A stretch of 64,000 nt of DNA from Candidatus Poribacteria bacterium (GTDB lineage: Bacteria > Poribacteria > WGA-4E > WGA-3G): the NCBI GenBank assembly GCA_965242965.1, contig OZ251518.1, positions 1,952,001 through 2,016,000 on the forward strand. The letters run 5' to 3'. The notes beneath the pieces were generated by a model. The model had not been told where the DNA came from and searched no databases. It saw nothing but the letters and a program-made list of their open reading frames with translations. Both the position numbers and the translations under genes were made by a program. Positions 135 to 61,988 of this stretch are shown here, in pieces (the first letter of the stretch is position 1; every line of letters starts with the position of its first letter).

Positions 135-320
135 CGTAGCGCGGGGGCCTGTCCTCCGCGAGTTTTCGGTAGACCGCAGCATAGCGAGGGAAACCCGCTC
201 GCAGGCGCGTGTGGCATGCGAGGGCCCAAGCCCTACGGTGAGGGGGCCGTTCTGTTGGAAAGAAAATGTCCGGTTACCGTAGCGCGGGGGCCTGTCCCCC
301 GCGCTCTCGCCCGCGGCCTA
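135..320. repeat. GTAG-REP cluster
   Basis: GTAGCGCGGGGGCCTGTCCCCCGCG and GAGGGCCCAAGCCCTAC units. Confidence 0.85.
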
Positions 321-1295
321 CGCGCCGTTTTGTGCCCGCGCGATATCACGATAGCGTCGCACTTCCACATCATCCGGCATGCGTCGCAGCGTTTCCTTGT
401 AATCCTGCAGCGCGGCTTCATACCGTTGCATCGCGAAGTTTGCATGCGCACGGCCGAGGTATGCATCGACATCTTCCGAGTTTCGCGCGAGGGCTGCATC
501 GTAATCGCGGACAGCGGCGGTGTAGTGCTGCAGGTGAAAGTGTGTCACGGCGCGATTGAAATAGCCTTCACTACGTTCGGGTTTCAGACGGATAGCCGCG
601 TCATAGTCGCGCAGCGCGGCGGTGTAGTCGCCGAGGGCATAGTAGAGGCTGCCCCGGTTGCAGTGCGCCGCGGCATAATCAGGTTTGAGGCGGATGGCGA
701 CATCGTAAGCGGCGATGGCGTTTTCCGATTTGCCGATTTCCGCGAGGAGGGTGCCGAGGGAGAAAAAAGCATCGATGGCATTTTCTTCTTCGGTGGGGAC
801 ATGGATATCCTTATTTTTTTCATCCAACCGTGCGATGGCTGCTTCTATCTCGGGGTCCTCCTCATGTTCCAATTCCAGGAGTTCTGGAAACAACTCTTCC
901 ATAGTTGGAAAATGGGCTTTCCCATAAATCCTCACGAAGTCTCCGACGCATGCATCTACGTCTGCTAAGGGACTGTCGAGATTGCCACCATCAGCCCACA
1001 TTAACTCCTCTGCCATGACAGAGAGTTGTTTGTATTCGTCCGCGGTGGCGGTGGGACGGCGCAGATTATCGGTGCGATTGGCGAGTTCGGTTAATAACTC
1101 TTGGATGCCGACGAGCCACGCGACGTAACTTTCCGAGGGTGCTTCCTCTTCAGCGGCATGCTTCTCTTCCGGTAAGCCCTCGCGTTCAAGCGGTGCTTGC
1201 CGCGGGATGAACGGCTCTGGCAGACTCATGCGAAGCGAGACAGCGAGTGCCGGCACGGGTAAGCCAGTGGGCATCGTTTGTGTAGGCGTTAACAT
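318..1295 (-). CDS. HigA-like N-terminal antitoxin domain fused to TPR repeats (copy 1)
   Basis: AGGAGG RBS; EYKQL..EELM..DSPLAD..DFVRIY segment resembles the HigA N-domain; 3-4 C-terminal TPRs (AHCNRGSLYYALGDY); directly downstream of a higB-like gene. Confidence 0.75.
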   Translation of the reverse strand: MLTPTQTMPTGLPVPALAVSLRMSLPEPFIPRQAPLEREGLPEEKHAAEEEAPSESYVAWLVGIQELLTELANRTDNLRRPTATADEYKQLSVMAEELMWADGGNLDSPLADVDACVGDFVRIYGKAHFPTMEELFPELLELEHEEDPEIEAAIARLDEKNKDIHVPTEEENAIDAFFSLGTLLAEIGKSENAIAAYDVAIRLKPDYAAAHCNRGSLYYALGDYTAALRDYDAAIRLKPERSEGYFNRAVTHFHLQHYTAAVRDYDAALARNSEDVDAYLGRAHANFAMQRYEAALQDYKETLRRMPDDVEVRRYRDIARAQNGA

Positions 1296-1301
1296 TGGGT
1301 T

Positions 1302-1639
1302 TTACCTCCTCTTTAACCACGCGTTATACTCGGCGTGCGTTAACACACGATCGCCACCTGCTGTCTGTCATAGTTTATCTTGGCAATCAGGCGGGTTTTG
1401 TTACCGCCAATGTTGAAGCCAGTGTAGTTGACTTCTTCCTTAAGGTGGCGTTTCTGTTGTGAAGAATAAACGAAATCTTCTCTTTTCACCAGATCGGCGT
1501 GCGGAAACACCTCCCGCACCTCGTTAAGCGACTGGAAATCTCTTTGCCGCACCAAATCACGCCAGCGGTGAAGTCCCGGCTTGCTGTTTGGATGTCTTTG
1601 TGCAAAGTCGTTGAGTTTTTCTTCAAAATGAATCTGCAT
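1302..1639 (-). pseudogene. higB: HigB-family toxin with a frameshift near the 3' end (copy 1)
   Basis: FPHAD..FNIGGNKTRLI motif; ATC GT GTGTTAACG versus ATC GATTAT GTGTTAACG in copy 2 (net 4-nt loss) gives a premature TAA at 1340 and removes THAEY. Confidence 0.8.
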
Positions 1640-1684: not shown

Positions 1685-1860
1685 CATGGCGAGGGACAAG
1701 CCCGCGCCCTACGTGCAGCGAAGTCACCGTAGCGCGGGGGCCTGTCCCCCGCGAGTTTTCGATAGACCGCAGCATGGCGAGGGCCTGTCCTCGCCCTACG
1801 GTGAAAGGGCGTTTCTCCTACCGTAGCGCGGGGGCCTGTCCCCCGCGGTCTCGCCCTACG
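1685..1860. repeat. GTAG-REP cluster at the junction of the tandem duplication
   Basis: Same units as 135..320. Confidence 0.85.
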
Positions 1861-2842
1861 CGCGGTTTTCTGCCTGCGCGATATCCCGATACCGTTGCAC
1901 TTCCACATCATCCGGCGAGCGTTGCAGCGTCTCCTCGTAATCCTGCAGCGCGGCTTTATACCGTTGCATCGCGAAGTTGGCATGCGCGCGGCCGAGGTAA
2001 GCATCAACATCATCCGGATTCCGTGCGAGGGCTGCATCGTAATCTCGGACAGCGGCGGTATAGTGCTGCAGGTGAAAGTGCGTCACGGCGCGATTGAAAT
2101 AGCCTTCACTACGTTCAGGTTTCAGGCGGATAGCCGCGTCATAATCATGAAGCGCGGCGGTGTAGTCGCCGAGGGCATAGTAGAGGCTGCCTCGGTTGCA
2201 GTGCGCCGCGGCGTAATCGGGTTTCAGGCGGATGGCGACATCGTAAGCGGCGATGGCGTTCTCGGCTTTTCCGATGTCCGTGAGGAGGGTGCCGAGTGAG
2301 AAAAAGGCATCGATGGCAATTTCTTCTTCCGTGGGGACATGGATGTCCTTATTTTTTTCATCCAACCGTGCGATGGCTGCTTCTATCTCGGGGTCTTCCT
2401 CATGTTCCAGTTCTAGGAGTTCGGGGAACAACTCTTCCAGAGTTGGAAACGTTGCTGCCTCATAAATCCGCATGAAGTCGGCGACACATACCTCTATGTC
2501 CGCTAAGGGACTGTCGAAATTGTCACCAGCCGCCCACATTAACTCCTCTAACATGCCAGAGAGTTGCTTGTATTCGTCCGCTGTGGCTGTGGAACGGCGC
2601 AGATCATCGGTGCGATTGGCGAGTTCGGTTAATAACTCTTGGATGCCGACGAGCCACGCGACGTAACTTTCCGCAGGTGCTATCTCTTCATCTGCGTGTT
2701 TCTCTTCCGGTAAGTCCTCGCTTTCAAGCGGTGTCTGCGGTGCTTGTCGCGGGATGAGCGGCTCCGGCAGGCTCATGCGGATGGACACAGGGAGCACCGG
2801 CACGGGTAAGCCAGTGGGCATCGCTTGTGTAGGCGTTAACAT
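1856..2842 (-). CDS. HigA-like N-terminal antitoxin domain fused to TPR repeats (copy 2)
   Basis: Close paralog of 318..1295; retains the IYE motif; C-terminal TPRs. Confidence 0.75.
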   Translation of the reverse strand: MLTPTQAMPTGLPVPVLPVSIRMSLPEPLIPRQAPQTPLESEDLPEEKHADEEIAPAESYVAWLVGIQELLTELANRTDDLRRSTATADEYKQLSGMLEELMWAAGDNFDSPLADIEVCVADFMRIYEAATFPTLEELFPELLELEHEEDPEIEAAIARLDEKNKDIHVPTEEEIAIDAFFSLGTLLTDIGKAENAIAAYDVAIRLKPDYAAAHCNRGSLYYALGDYTAALHDYDAAIRLKPERSEGYFNRAVTHFHLQHYTAAVRDYDAALARNPDDVDAYLGRAHANFAMQRYKAALQDYEETLQRSPDDVEVQRYRDIAQAENRA

Positions 2843-2848
2843 TGGGTT

Positions 2849-3190
2849 TTACCTCCTCTTTAACCACGCGGTATACTCGGCGTGCGTTAACACATAATCG
2901 ATCTCCACCCGCTGACTGGCATAGTGTATCCTGGCAATCAAGCGGGTTTTGTTACCGCCGATGTTGAAGACAGTGTAGCTGACTTCTTCCTTAACACCGC
3001 GGTTCTGTTCTTTAGGATAAACGAATCTTTCTCTTTTCACCAAATCGGCGTGCGGAAACATCGCACGCACCTCGTTAAGTGACCGGAAATTTTTTTGCCG
3101 CACCAAATCACGCCAGCGGTGAAGTGCCGGCTTGCTGTTTGGGTGTCTTTGTGCAAAATTGTTGAGTTTTTGTAGAGATGTAATCTGCAT
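2849..3190 (-). CDS. higB: Type II toxin HigB (RelE superfamily mRNA interferase), intact
   Basis: MQITSLQKL..FPHAD..VFNIGGNKTRLIARIHY..VLTHAEY; start trimmed to ATG at 3190. Confidence 0.85.
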   Translation of the reverse strand: MQITSLQKLNNFAQRHPNSKPALHRWRDLVRQKNFRSLNEVRAMFPHADLVKRERFVYPKEQNRGVKEEVSYTVFNIGGNKTRLIARIHYASQRVEIDYVLTHAEYTAWLKRR

Positions 3191-3380
3191 CGGAAAACCA
3201 GTCCTATTCAAAACGGCGCGACGACGATTTAGCCGGCGATGCCCACTCGCAACACGACAGCAGACACTTAACACCGACACTTTAGTTAGGATACCACATC
3301 AAAACAGAATTTGCAAGCGAAAATTGCTTTTTTTCCCATTCCGTGTATAATAGAACAGAAACCCCCAACGCGGAGAAAAA

Positions 3381-5264
3381 ATGGAACAGCGGGAAACGAA
3401 ACTTGACATGCAACGCGCTGAAATACAAGGCGTATCCAAATGGATTTTTGAAATAGGCGCGGCATCCCTGGTCTTTTTCTATATCTATAGCGCGGGCTTT
3501 GGGACAGCGGCGGAACAATATCACCTTGGTTTTTACCTGATTGCCACCTACGCGCTCATCGGCATCTTCTACAAATGCCGCTCGCGCTCGCCTGCATCGC
3601 GGCCATCCCTCTTTGATATGTTGCTGGTTGGGATGAGCGTCCTCTCCATAGGCTATTGGATAGTCGAATACCCGAACCTTGCCAATCGGGCGGGTGCGTA
3701 TACGCGCACGGATATCGCGATGGGGGCACTTGCGCTGATGGCTAGCGTTGAGGTGAGCCGCCGCACCGTAGGATGGGGACTGCCTGTTATCGCCGCTGTC
3801 GGTATTTTATACGCGCTTTTCGGACGCGCCATGCCAGAAGCAATTGCACACAAAGGGTTTACACCGTGGCGGATTATTGAATACTGCTTCTTCAGCCAAG
3901 CCGGCATCTTCGGCATCATGGCGAACGTGATGGCAACTTACGTCATCCTCTTCATTTTTTTCGGGGCGTTTTTGGAGAAATCCGGCGTAGGACAGTTTTT
4001 TATCAACCTGCCGATGTCACTCGCCGGACGCTCTATCGGCGGCGCAGCGAAGGTTTCTGTCGTCACCTCCGGCTTCTTCGGCTCCGTCGCCGGCAGTGCC
4101 ATCGCAAACACGGTGACTACCGGCACGTTTACGATTCCGCTAATGAAGCGGACCGGATTCCGGCCACACGTCGCGGGCGCAGTGGAAGCATCAGCCTCCG
4201 TCGGTGGGCAATTCTTACCGCCTGTGATGGGCGCGGGCGCGTTTTTAATGGCGGAACGGACAGGATTGCCCTACAGCCAAATCGCGCTCATTTCCATTGT
4301 CCCGGCAATCCTCTATTTTCTCTCTGTCTGGATGATGGTGCATTTTGAAGCGAAGAAAGAGGGATTACAAAGCATTCCCGCCGCAGAGATACCCAAACTC
4401 TCCGTTCTCCTGAAAACAAATTGGTATTACCTGCTGCCCCTGCTCACCCTCATCGGAATGTTGATCGCCAAGCATACCGCCTACAACTCGGCGTTCTACG
4501 CAATCCTCGTTACGATAGGCGTGAGTTATTTTCGCCCAGAGACGCGGTTGACACCGAAGCGCATCTGGGAAGCGATGGTTACCGGTGCGAAAAATTCGCT
4601 TGCAATCGGCGGAGCCGTCGGCACTATCGGCATCATCGTCGCCGTTATCGATTTGACAGGTTTAGGTAGGATTTTTCCGGATTTGGTGTTATCTGTCGCC
4701 GGCGATAGCCGCTTTATCGCCGTATTGCTGCTCGCCGCCGCGTCGCTAGTTTTAGGAATGGGCATCCCCGTCACCGCCGCCTACCTCATCACCTCTGAAC
4801 TCGCCGTGCCGATTTTGACGAACCCAGAACTCGGCGTGTCCGTTATCGCCGCGCACCTCATTATCTTCTGGCTGAGCCAAGATTCTAACATCACACCGCC
4901 GGTTGCGCTCGGTGCCTATGCCGGTGCCGCTATTGCTCGGGCAGACCCGTGGCAAACCGGTTGGACCTGCTTCAAATTCGCTAAACTCCTATACGTGATG
5001 CCGTTGCTGTTCGCCTACACGCACATCTTGCTTGAGGGCACGCTGACCCAAAATGTGTTATCCGTGGCGACGGCTGTCGTGGGGACGCTCGTTTTTTCGA
5101 TGGTGACGATGGGCTATTTCGTGCGCAAAACGCGGTGGTATGAGTGGATCTTGCTTGCCTTGGCGGCGTTCCTCGCGTATGTCTACAATATCTGGGCATT
5201 CGTCATCGCGCTGGCGATAGTTGCGTTTGTCTATTTTATGCAAAAACGGGAGGCGATGTCCTAA
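3381..5264 (+). CDS. TRAP transporter fused permease (4TM/12TM, TAXI-type)
   Basis: GSAIANTVTTGTFTIPLMK, PPVMGAGAF, SNITPPVAL motifs; many TM segments. Confidence 0.92.
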   Translation: MEQRETKLDMQRAEIQGVSKWIFEIGAASLVFFYIYSAGFGTAAEQYHLGFYLIATYALIGIFYKCRSRSPASRPSLFDMLLVGMSVLSIGYWIVEYPNLANRAGAYTRTDIAMGALALMASVEVSRRTVGWGLPVIAAVGILYALFGRAMPEAIAHKGFTPWRIIEYCFFSQAGIFGIMANVMATYVILFIFFGAFLEKSGVGQFFINLPMSLAGRSIGGAAKVSVVTSGFFGSVAGSAIANTVTTGTFTIPLMKRTGFRPHVAGAVEASASVGGQFLPPVMGAGAFLMAERTGLPYSQIALISIVPAILYFLSVWMMVHFEAKKEGLQSIPAAEIPKLSVLLKTNWYYLLPLLTLIGMLIAKHTAYNSAFYAILVTIGVSYFRPETRLTPKRIWEAMVTGAKNSLAIGGAVGTIGIIVAVIDLTGLGRIFPDLVLSVAGDSRFIAVLLLAAASLVLGMGIPVTAAYLITSELAVPILTNPELGVSVIAAHLIIFWLSQDSNITPPVALGAYAGAAIARADPWQTGWTCFKFAKLLYVMPLLFAYTHILLEGTLTQNVLSVATAVVGTLVFSMVTMGYFVRKTRWYEWILLALAAFLAYVYNIWAFVIALAIVAFVYFMQKREAMS

Positions 5265-5269
5265 ATCAA

Positions 5270-5640
5270 GCATCGAGACCGGGCGGTCTCAATTTTCCCG
5301 TAGCGCGGGGGCCCTCGGATGCCACACGCGCATCCGAGCGGGTTTCCCCCGCGAGCGTTGGAGAACCGTTATTTTTATCGTAGCGCGGGGGCCTGTCCCC
5401 CGCGATCTCCATCGTCAAGAGATGGCGTTTTAGGTCCTTTAGGACCTGAAGAGAACAAGAGACGTTTTTTTCGGAGATCGAACGATGGCGAGGGACAGGC
5501 CCTCGCCCTACGGTGAAGGAGAGGCGGCCTCGACACCCGTAGCGCGGGGGCCTGGCCCCCGCGATCGTTGGAGTGCGCGGACAATGACGAGGGACAGGTT
5601 TTCCTATTGCATCGCAACCCGAGGTCTCTCCTACCGGGGC
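5270..5640. repeat. GTAG-REP cluster between convergent genes
   Basis: Multiple REP doublets. Confidence 0.85.
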
Positions 5641-6518
5641 CTGCCATCAAACGCTTTACGCAAATACAAAAGAATATCCTCAGCGGCGCGACGAGAGACA
5701 CGCGCGTTGAATGCCACAGCCGCCCTTTCCGCACGATAATAATTACCTTGATAATAACGCAGAAACAGCGCGGTTGCCCACAAAACCGCATCCATGTAAT
5801 GTCCATCAAGTGCCGCGTCAACGGTGGCAAAACCTAGCGCGCCGTTTAGCACGAAAGCGTTGAGTCCATCGCGCCAATTGCCGACATAGACTTGTCCCGC
5901 ACCGGGTAAGATTACCGACAAGATTTTCGCAAGTCTCATCGATTTCCGCGGTGCATTGAGTGCCGCATCAAAGTGCGCGTCAAGTTCTGTCAAACCTAAG
6001 TGAGTAGGCAAGGTTTTTAACCCCGCATAATTTTTCAGGGCAGCGCGCGCTTCTTCCCATCGGAATTGGTAGAGATACGCAACGCCTTGCAAAAACAGCG
6101 CGCGCCGATACTGCGCCTCCGAAGGGTTTTGCATCGTGACTTTAAGCAACGCCAATAATCCCATGTCATAGTTTTTCCCGGCGATGTGCGTCACGGCGAG
6201 TGCCAGTTGCAGTTCAATTTTCGTTGTCTTATCGGGAGTGCGTTGGATAGCCGTGCGCATCGCGGCGACTGCCTCTTCCCACATCCCTTGTTCGCGATAG
6301 GCGAGCCCGATGTTGCGGTATGCCTTCCCCGCGCGCGTGTCATCGGGATGGAAGAAGAGGAACCGTTTATACTCGGTGATGGCGGCATCGTAATTGCCCA
6401 AGGCGAAGAAGTGATCGCCTAAGAACAGAGGCATCTCGTCAGCGGCGGCGGTGAAGATGAAACCGAAGAGGGTTAGAAACAGGGAGAAGGCGATTCGCTT
6501 GAAAAGCATTTTTGGCAC
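5631..6518 (-). CDS. TPR protein with signal peptide and C-terminal hydrophobic S..LPGAG..Y domain
   Basis: N-terminal hydrophobic signal, TPRs (YDAAITEYKRF), SVILPGAGQVYVG. Confidence 0.75.
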   Translation of the reverse strand: MPKMLFKRIAFSLFLTLFGFIFTAAADEMPLFLGDHFFALGNYDAAITEYKRFLFFHPDDTRAGKAYRNIGLAYREQGMWEEAVAAMRTAIQRTPDKTTKIELQLALAVTHIAGKNYDMGLLALLKVTMQNPSEAQYRRALFLQGVAYLYQFRWEEARAALKNYAGLKTLPTHLGLTELDAHFDAALNAPRKSMRLAKILSVILPGAGQVYVGNWRDGLNAFVLNGALGFATVDAALDGHYMDAVLWATALFLRYYQGNYYRAERAAVAFNARVSRRAAEDILLYLRKAFDGRPR

Positions 6519-61529: not shown

Positions 61530-61601
61530 GCGGGAGTAGCTCAGTGGTAGAGCTCCACCTTGCCAAGGTGGAGGTCGCGAGTTCAAATCTCGTCTCCCGC
61601 T
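61530..61601 (+). tRNA. tRNA-Gly(GCC)
   Basis: GCGGGAG/CTCCCGC acceptor, CCACC-TTGCCAA-GGTGG anticodon arm, GTTCAAAT T-loop; CCA not encoded. Confidence 0.95.
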
Positions 61602-61624
61602 TTTGCCTATCGGGTGTGTTCAGA

Positions 61625-61822
61625 TTGCATCGAGACCGGCTTGATTTCTGTAGGTAAAGAGCGCCTGCTCTTTACTGCATCGAGACCAGGAGGTCTCTCC
61701 TACTGGTTTGATTTTTGTAGGTAAAGAGTGCCTACTCTTTACTGCATTGAGACCGGGAGGTCTCTCCTACCGAGAAATTGAGACCGGGAGAGGTGTATCG
61801 AGACCAGGAGGTCTCTCCTACC
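61625..61822. repeat. REP cluster between tRNA-Gly and tRNA-Cys
   Basis: GAGACCRGGAGGTCTCTCCTAC x3 and GTAGGTAAAGAG.GCCT.CTCTTTAC x2. Confidence 0.85.
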
Positions 61823-61831
61823 CAAAAATAT

Positions 61832-61903
61832 GGTGGCGTAGCCAAGTGGTAAGGCCAGAGTCTGCAAAACTCTTATGCGTCGGTTCGATTCCGACCGCCA
61901 CCT
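61832..61903 (+). tRNA. tRNA-Cys(GCA)
   Basis: GGTGGCG/CGCCACC acceptor, AGAGT-CTGCAAA-ACTCT, GTTCGATT. Confidence 0.95.
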
Positions 61904-61914
61904 TCACTCCTCAC

Positions 61915-61988
61915 GGGCGGTTAGCTCAGGTGGCTAGAGCGTTTGCTTGACATGCAAGAGGTCACAGGTTCAAGTCCTGTACCGCCCA
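61915..61988 (+). tRNA. tRNA-Val(GAC)
   Basis: GGGCGGT/ACCGCCC acceptor, TTGC-TTGACAT-GCAA, GTTCAAGT. Confidence 0.95.

Follow-up and report, generated by a model that had tools for sequence, protein, structure and literature searches.

A HigB toxin paired with a HigA-type antitoxin that carries a tetratricopeptide repeat array in place of the helix-turn-helix: a probable lineage-specific variant of the HigBA module in Poribacteria

In the type II toxin-antitoxin (TA) module HigB-HigA of Escherichia coli K-12 (YgjN-YgjM; structures 5IFG, 5YCL and 6KML), the toxin gene precedes that of the antitoxin, and the N-domain of HigA is reportedly (Yang et al., 2016) the part that binds the toxin. The remainder of E. 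coli HigA comprises an Xre-type helix-turn-helix (HTH), matched by HTH_3 (PF01381) at residues 84-135 (E 1.5e-7), and PMC7984235 describes all four solved HigA proteins as possessing an HTH, which in E. coli HigA is C-terminal. In the HigBAC (PD-lambda-2) system, a chaperone that guards the tail of HigA senses a phage tail protein (10.1101/2024.02.24.581848). Here, a gene pair is described from a 64,000-nucleotide (nt) stretch of a Candidatus Poribacteria genome, hereafter the window (GenBank assembly GCA_965242965.1, contig OZ251518.1, positions 1,952,001 to 2,016,000), which shares its toxin family (PF09907) and its toxin-first order with the E. coli module, and in which the N-domain of the antitoxin-like protein is homologous to that of E. 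coli HigA by way of a HigA family profile. The two modules differ in that the antitoxin-like protein carries an array of four tetratricopeptide repeats (TPRs) where E. coli HigA ends in its HTH, possesses an additional N-terminal extension of 57 amino acids (aa) together with an extra helix, and is accompanied by a toxin whose loop is 15 aa longer than that of E. coli HigB. Judged by homology, the locus is best explained as a variant of the HigBA type II TA module that is specific to this lineage. The features of this pair, termed copy B (a second copy lies downstream of it), are as follows:

2849..3190, minus strand: higB copy B, a HigB-family (RelE superfamily) toxin of 113 aa, assigned by Pfam and by homology to E. 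coli HigB
2969..3043, minus strand: loop insertion in HigB, the 25 aa (residues 50-74) that separate FPHAD from FNIGGN, from a split Pfam match and a gap relative to E. coli HigB
2852..2856, minus strand: Shine-Dalgarno sequence GGAGG for the antitoxin, within the last two higB codons and 9 nt before the ATG, read from the sequence and kept in copy A
1856..2842, minus strand: antitoxin-like gene copy B, 328 aa, composed of N-extension, HigA-type N-domain, linker and four TPRs with a capping helix, from the open reading frame (ORF), Pfam, hhalign and AlphaFold2
2672..2842, minus strand: proline-rich N-terminal extension, residues 1-57, predicted to be mostly disordered from the per-residue model confidence (pLDDT)
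2438..2671, minus strand: three-helix N-domain, with helices at residues 58-75, 88-105 and 112-131 of the AlphaFold2 model
1862..2329, minus strand: TPR array, residues 172-327, consisting of four 34-residue repeats (starting at 177, 211, 245 and 279) and a capping helix, from TPR_1
3288..3316, minus strand: promoter-like TTGCAA-N17-TATCCT, ~90 nt upstream of higB, proposed from conservation of the leader

It had been predicted from the bare DNA sequence (the original prediction) that an intact HigB-like toxin with an insertion of ~20 aa lies upstream of a HigA-like helical segment, and both statements concerning the toxin are borne out. The 113-aa protein scores 85.3 bits (E 3.4e-24) with PF09907, the curated cut-off of which is 27; the match is divided over two stretches and therefore points to an insertion. 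The solved E. coli HigB chains (5ycl, 5ifg and 6kml) were recovered with the window protein at an E-value of 1e-7, the E. coli chains showing a gap of ~15 residues. Its MQI... start is backed by the alignment of relatives, and an alignment of 12 relatives and E. coli HigB contains 14 invariant columns, among them F75, N76, G79, N80, R83, V100, T102, H103, E105 and Y106, so that all residues common to the family are retained and the toxin, judged by conservation, is apparently intact. To compare the inserted loop between toxins, 84 distinct sequences were aligned, and the count was confined to the 71 in which both flanks of the loop are complete. The lengths of the loop (FPxxD to FNIGGN) by type of partner were:

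TPR-type or long partner: 14-26 aa (39/39 toxins)
N-domain-only partner: 7 aa (11 toxins)
N-domain and HTH partner: 7-8 aa (15 toxins)
Partner not identified: 8 aa (6 toxins)
E. coli HigB, as a reference: 10 aa (1 toxin)

Among the loci examined, the long loop thus accompanies TPR-bearing partners only (39/39 toxins versus 0/32 of the others, which have 7-8 aa), and the 25 aa of the window toxin exceed both the 10 aa of E. coli HigB and the short loop found with other partners. The long loop defines a distinct toxin/antitoxin subfamily.

The partner gene encodes a protein of 328 aa, of which the AlphaFold2 model (31 sequences; pLDDT 84.2, predicted template modelling score (pTM) 0.79) places in succession a disordered N-extension (residues 1-57), three helices, a helical linker and the TPR helices (172-327). 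Within the extension, the pLDDT is below 50 at residues 1-10 and 33-53 and 64-75 at residues 11-30, and its MLT..Q start and proline-rich pattern are kept in relatives. The C-terminal half is matched by TPR_1 in four stretches (E 5e-29), and an HTH family is absent both from the 23 Pfam matches of the protein (E <= 1) and from its NCBIfam matches, in agreement with the prediction of TPRs following the HigA-like segment without a recognisable Xre-HTH. In a Foldseek search with the full model, this half superposes on consensus TPR proteins with a root-mean-square deviation (rmsd) of 1.2-1.8 Å, for example 2fo7 (rmsd 1.2 over 135 columns) and 9gzg (TMt 0.89); the matches were of a generic nature (consensus-TPR, OGT, APC and MamA), with no specific relative among them, and a search of the ESM Atlas gave no usable match. 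Neither RNPP_C nor an HTH is matched by the protein in Pfam, which sets it apart from RRNPP-type regulators (HTH and TPR), and no NTPase family is matched in Pfam or PADLOC, which sets it apart from TPR sensors of the STAND/Avs type (NACHT or AAA_16). Prediction of the complex between HigB and residues 1-150 of the antitoxin, both supplied as alignments, returned a score of 0.00 (mark 0.32), which counts as evidence neither way.

The relationship of the N-domain to HigA was assessed by means of a profile of 100 columns, built from the window protein and 21 loci of its own and related genomes. When searched against 1.84 billion representative proteins (hmmsearch), this profile gave 535 matches at E <= 1e-3, of which 107 were at E <= 1e-10; apart from members of the family itself, the matches cover profile positions ~34-88, and many are 56-150 aa long. 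Among the matches is a canonical HigA of 135 aa (P0128, E 6e-11), in which the segment occupies residues 26-73 and the region that follows shares 40% identity with the E. coli HigA HTH (BLASTP E 2e-13). One source gives the relatives of P0128 the name 'HTH-type transcriptional regulator/antitoxin HigA', and PF01381 is present in several of them. A HigA family profile, consisting of an alignment of 25 of these canonical relatives (N-domain and HTH), aligned with residues 13-138 of E. coli HigA at an hhalign probability of 99.5%, and with the N-domain profile at a probability of 99.06% (E 1.7e-18) over 51 columns, which correspond to window residues 84-134. The helical segment that had been taken for HigA-like (DEYKQL...FP, residues 89-133) is the part so aligned. 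When the full-length alignment of the TPR family was used instead, only residues 84-135 aligned with the HigA profile (probability 97.8%, E 7.3e-13) and the HTH half of HigA remained unaligned. On these profile comparisons, residues 84-135 are truly homologous to the N-domain of HigA and presumably form the toxin-binding core; the HTH is absent.

The linkage of the two genes, for which the original prediction had suggested a search in other genomes, recurs within and beyond the genome of the window. In this genome (5.7 Mb) 4/4 HigB loci are followed by a TPR-type partner, and the antitoxin-like gene exists in a fifth, more distant copy (L088 2669-3643; C1:1694669-1695643) that encodes 324 aa, with ~42% identity to the window protein over the first 168 residues; no trace of HigB was detected upstream of this orphan. 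Using the N-terminal 168 aa as a query, matches were obtained in 32/36 further genomes from the bacterial family to which the window genome belongs and in 0/24 from three sister families. Among the loci that were fetched, a HigB ORF immediately precedes the gene in 12/19, and a 3' remnant of HigB in 3 more. A scan of GTDB contigs with the window protein alone gave no locus, while a scan with a narrower alignment gave 36 loci with the full domain, 35 of them on records titled Candidatus or uncultured Poribacteria (the exception, L058, is titled 'uncultured bacterium'), and also 13 loci from other phyla with the core only. Of these 36 loci, whose genomes overlap with those of the 19 fetched loci, 19 have a HigB ORF directly upstream, 5 only a 3' remnant of HigB and 12 no HigB that could be found upstream. 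Additionally, 16 regions contributed 17 further genes: HigB lies immediately upstream of 14, is split upstream of 1 and is absent upstream of 2. The split toxin precedes a 661-aa TPR-type partner, its 5' and 3' parts lying ~1.1 kb apart (L085 3951-5427). With the query used, a scan of IMG/VR gave 3 core-only loci and none of the full form.

Within the same bacterial family, HigB is partnered at the loci examined by a range of proteins that share the N-domain: canonical HigA of 135 aa (N-domain and HTH), N-domain-only proteins of 75 aa (e.g. L107 and L115), proteins of 102-151 aa that carry an N-extension and end after the domain (L120-L124: 108-151 aa), and TPR fusions of 321 to 845 aa. A 75-aa N-domain-only partner likewise stands directly after HigB in an Acidobacteriota metagenome-assembled genome (MAG; L066 2638-3156), and outside the family the core domain with an HTH is found after HigB in Proteobacteria MAGs. 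The HTH is, on the evidence of the N-domain-only partners (75-151 aa) encoded directly after HigB in this family and in the Acidobacteriota MAG, dispensable in nature. N-domain-only partners of HigB were observed down to 57 aa (57-75 aa across L066, L107, L112 and L115), and dozens of matches of 56-80 aa were returned from the 1.84 billion proteins, some of which may be fragments. They have the same N-domain and the same position after HigB as the window antitoxin, lack a C-terminal domain and are paired with toxins bearing the short loop of 7 aa; no paper on them was found in literature searches aimed at other topics.

Further modules are attached to the TPR protein in relatives. In two other genera the commonest form is a class of ~360 aa (L029-L056, e.g. 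L029 2869-3960) in which the N-domain is followed by 1-2 TPRs and, at the C-terminus, by an HSDR_N_2-like (PD-(D/E)xK-type) domain with a conserved D...ECK; HSDR_N_2 (PF13588) is matched by 15/21 members (best E 4.3e-6), the first member lying just under the cut-off. At one locus in each of two related genomes, the TPR protein ends in a tail (GQWKGKVK.AEDFDELP.SF) and its gene overlaps by 4 nt with a downstream PIN gene, namely L078 2506-5750, where HigB is followed by an N-domain-TPR protein of 845 aa, and L126 6-1878, where a 3' remnant of HigB is followed by one of 440 aa. The tail matches DUF2281 weakly (E 0.0073, below the cut-off), the PIN gene of L078 matches PF01850 (E 2.6e-16), and the same tail ends a stand-alone antitoxin of 105 aa ahead of a PIN gene in L127. 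The TPR protein of these two loci is possibly a double antitoxin, its DUF2281-like tail recalling the VapB-VapC (PIN) modules; the window genes lack such a tail. A search for longer proteins gave 52 matches, of which 28 are TPR fusions of the window kind, 20 are of 259-300 aa and 4 are other fusions. All but one of the 20 have the domain at the N-terminus, followed by a helical region without family assignment. Proteins of 259 aa, some of them named HigA by one source (within P0211-P0230), consist of the N-domain and ~185 helical aa without a Pfam family and represent a further HTH-less variant. In P0233 and P0234, which are STAND-like (cyclase or wHTH with AAA_16), a segment resembling the HigA N-domain ends the protein at the place where the repeat array is expected, and these may be genes broken by insertion of a TA module or real fusions.

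The junction of the two genes in the window is compact. The stop codon of higB (TAA, 2849-2851) is separated by 6 nt from the ATG of its partner on the same strand, an arrangement of the HigA operon type, with the antitoxin directly downstream of higB, that recurs in relatives. The last two higB codons before the stop are AGG AGG and contain the Shine-Dalgarno sequence of the antitoxin, while no such motif was apparent ahead of the higB ATG on reading the sequence. The leader of ~90 nt (3191-3283) is 90-93% identical among the three paralogous loci with intact pairs, the outer flanks of which differ, and it is better conserved than the toxin gene itself. The promoter-like element scores under the threshold of a consensus promoter scan; the scans for promoters and terminators and the search for inverted repeats upstream of higB gave nothing convincing, with no inverted repeat of >= 8 nt, a candidate operator palindrome, in 3150-3420. 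No known RNA was found in the higB leader by Rfam, which reported three tRNAs only in the window (a cluster at 61530-61988).

Among the three intact pairs of the genome, aa identity amounts to 91-94% for the TPR array, 94-97% for the linker, 53-76% for the HigA-like core and 62-75% for the toxin. The corresponding dN/dS values, obtained from small numbers of paralogues and short segments, are 0.15-0.22 (TPR), 0.39-0.44 (core) and 0.42 (toxin). At the DNA level the operon is a mosaic, in which the leader, the junction and the TPR region are conserved and the second half of the toxin gene and the core are divergent. Entropy was calculated from the family alignment filtered at 90% (20/31 rows), with the positions that we take to form the TPR groove assigned by the register of consensus TPR structures; it was 0.75 bits for this presumed groove, compared with 0.92 at the remaining non-core positions and 0.43 within the core. 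By these measures the groove is conserved and the TPR array is under purifying selection. The pattern fits paralogous pairs that diversify at their presumed interface while the TPR array keeps a constant partner, and it does not fit an array engaged in an arms race.

A tandem duplicate of the pair, not mentioned in the original prediction, is present in the window; this second copy (318-1660) comprises an intact antitoxin-like gene and a damaged toxin gene. The features of this copy and of the spacer between the pairs are:

318..1295, minus strand: antitoxin-like gene copy A, 325 aa, intact and 87% identical to copy B (ORF, Pfam, alignment)
1302..1639, minus strand: higB copy A, frameshifted by a 4-nt deletion and deprived of the conserved VLTHAEY C-terminus (DNA alignment with copy B)
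1734..1846, plus strand: two REP-like (repetitive extragenic palindrome-like) GC hairpins, at 1734-1752 and 1828-1846, in the spacer between the tandem pairs (repeat scan)

The truncated toxin ORF of copy A is located at 1340-1660, and its Pfam match stops at position 62 of the 74 in the model. Copy A is likewise trailed by a pair of hairpins (141-159 and 284-302). The 19-nt GC hairpin GCGGGGGCCTGTCCCCCGC occurs 71 times in the 64 kb (<= 2 mismatches), against 0 expected, and in the variant GCGAGGGCCTGTCCCTCGC both arms are changed and the stem is kept. These REP-like hairpins lie in intergenic spacers and flank each of the TA pairs, with a further example at 5385-5403. The genes that neighbour the pairs in the window encode an oxidoreductase, a sigma factor, a DAO oxidoreductase, an FG-GAP protein, TPR proteins, a TRAP transporter and a chorismate lyase-like protein; the locus lies in a housekeeping context and neither in a defence island nor in a mobile element.

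In the systems PaaA2 (paaR2-paaA2-parE2) and epsilon (omega-epsilon-zeta), the neutralising protein also lacks a DNA-binding domain and regulation falls to a separate gene; unlike these, window-type pairs have no conserved third gene, and their neighbours differ between paralogous loci. HigBAC resembles the window pair in combining a HigB-type toxin with an antitoxin that bears an accessory element beyond its neutralising part, yet it possesses a third gene, for a SecB-like chaperone, whereas the ORF list of the window shows none and the neighbours of the pair are the TRAP transporter and the duplicated pair. Furthermore, the window antitoxin has a folded TPR array in cis as its accessory element, that of HigBAC being a chaperone-recognised ChAD tail. 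By this analogy, HigBAC is the nearest known HigB module with an accessory sensor. The parts of the window module (HigB, the HigA N-domain and TPRs) are known, while their combination, its lineage-wide expansion and the further modules grafted onto it are new to us: 0/25 protein clusters of the TPR-HigA family are named by any source, and the literature searches that were run gave no paper on a TPR-fused HigA, those on toxin-antitoxin systems in Poribacteria and on antitoxins without a DNA-binding domain giving general papers only.

Taken together, we consider it probable, at roughly 85%, that the pair is a working, or recently working, HigB toxin-antitoxin system neutralised through the HigA-derived N-domain. 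HigB, as a member of the RelE superfamily, would presumably act as a ribosome-dependent mRNA endonuclease; its gene would be transcribed first but has no obvious ribosome-binding site, while the antitoxin would be translated from the strong GGAGG embedded in the end of higB. The antitoxin would neutralise HigB by direct binding through its three-helix N-domain (residues ~58-135), as suggested by domain homology, and the proline-rich N-extension and the 25-aa loop of the toxin may help this binding. Since the Xre-HTH is gone, the antitoxin would be unable to repress its own promoter in the manner of HigA, and the dosage of the two proteins would be set by translation and protein stability. The four TPRs are envisaged as a conserved peptide-binding platform, most likely docking a cellular partner that is conserved or a further copy of the antitoxin, and may serve as a scaffold, dimerisation or stability module, to which relatives have attached an HSDR_N_2-like domain or, for a PIN toxin encoded downstream, a VapB-like tail. 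Candidate ligands of the array include another antitoxin copy, the N-extension of the protein itself, the toxin loop, a protease or chaperone, and an external trigger. The fuller statement, namely that the TPR array is a conserved protein-docking platform which replaces the HTH and that autorepression of the HigA type does not take place, is in our opinion somewhat favoured by the sequence data, with considerable doubt remaining.

Several results weigh against this interpretation. Searches of PDB sequences with the N-terminal 168 aa (phmmer, 0 matches) and with the N-domain profile recovered no HigA chain, the profile matching only a designed repeat protein and sequences at chance level, and alignment of this profile with the single sequence of E. 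coli HigA (hhalign) fell in the expected place at a non-significant probability of 0.5%. Similarly, a Foldseek search of the PDB with the N-domain model (pLDDT 83.6) gave nothing at E <= 0.001 and returned small helical bundles only. The link between the N-domain and E. coli HigA is therefore transitive and passes through the intermediate HigA profile; the similarity to HigA that had been proposed for residues ~55-135 holds in the profile comparison over residues 84-135 and finds no counterpart in the fold search. The co-occurrence of the long loop with TPR partners was observed in related sequences and may reflect a single evolutionary event or shared ancestry, and the selection figures derive from 3-4 paralogues and short segments and are thus small samples. 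A mere role in dimerisation does not explain arrays in proteins of up to ~845 aa in relatives, and since many loci are without a toxin, the function of the TPR protein may not need HigB.

TPR arrays act as sensors in several defence proteins, and the original prediction had accordingly read the pair as a sensor-gated TA module, in which binding of a phage or host protein by the array releases HigB. In such a TA or abortive infection module, the array would bind a phage or sponge-host protein, the antitoxin would be removed, unfolded or destabilised, and the freed HigB would shut down translation. This is consistent with the match of the window HigB to the PADLOC model PD-Lambda-2_A (E 3.1e-20), with the presence of several paralogous pairs per genome, and with repeat numbers that vary across lineages from 4 repeats to proteins of ~845 aa; a precedent would be the HigBA-based toxin-antitoxin-chaperone (TAC) system, in which a phage tail protein is sensed via an accessory module (10.1101/2024.02.24.581848). 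However, a sensor in conflict with phages would hardly be expected to be the most conserved part of the protein among paralogues within the genome, under purifying selection (dN/dS 0.15-0.22) and with presumed groove positions less variable than other surface positions. Moreover, the neighbours are of a housekeeping nature, the antitoxin has no PADLOC match save a weak one at the level of TPRs only, the toxins are often frameshifted, truncated or split, and the full form is absent from IMG/VR with the query used. We therefore regard sensor gating as unlikely. An extension of it, in which the antitoxin would act as a hub from which a phage or sponge-host protein in the TPR groove frees HigB, and also the PIN toxin in relatives with a VapB-like tail, is equally doubtful; if true, one sensor would arm one or two translation/RNA toxins, and the module would represent the cis-encoded equivalent of a TAC system, working without a chaperone and expanded in an animal symbiont that has not been cultivated.

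It may also be argued that the main task of the TPR protein is unrelated to HigB, for example that of an 'eukaryote-like' TPR protein of a sponge symbiont, and that HigB and the HigA-type N-domain constitute a decaying, selfish addiction cassette fused to it by chance. The genome is indeed rich in TPR proteins, stand-alone examples of which are encoded nearby (window 5631-6518; L094 10463-11797), toxin-less orphans are common (L088 in the genome itself and 12/36 loci without a trace of HigB), and the toxin of copy A is frameshifted. Against a chance fusion, the arrangement is old and maintained, being present in 32/36 genomes of the bacterial family, conservation of the N-domain extends to the orphans, the long toxin loop was found only with the TPR type of partner among the loci examined, most loci keep intact toxins with conserved key residues, and the N-terminus of the 328-aa protein, as read from the sequence, shows no evident resemblance to an export-type signal peptide; such a function is considered quite improbable. 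That the pair is a non-functional relic with an inactive HigB is very improbable: the breakage of copy A would be in keeping with it, but copy B and two other paralogues retain full-length toxins with all residues common to E. coli HigB, the dN/dS of the toxin is 0.42 rather than ~1, and the leader and the Shine-Dalgarno sequence are conserved.

Type II antitoxins are usually pictured as a neutralising domain joined to a DNA-binding domain. If the pair is a HigB toxin-antitoxin system neutralised through a HigA-derived N-domain, the neutralising domain of HigA would behave as a portable module that occurs, within one bacterial family, alone, on an HTH or on TPR arrays of varied length, and these arrays can themselves bear further modules, such as a nuclease-like domain or the antitoxin tail for a second toxin. 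The relatives of the window pair would thus provide a natural series in which to ask what the C-terminal half of an antitoxin contributes, how a TA module is controlled without autorepression, and whether a repeat array may serve as the receptor of a trigger. The family would also add a concrete group of genes to the general observation, reported in the literature, that sponge symbionts abound in TA systems and TPR proteins.

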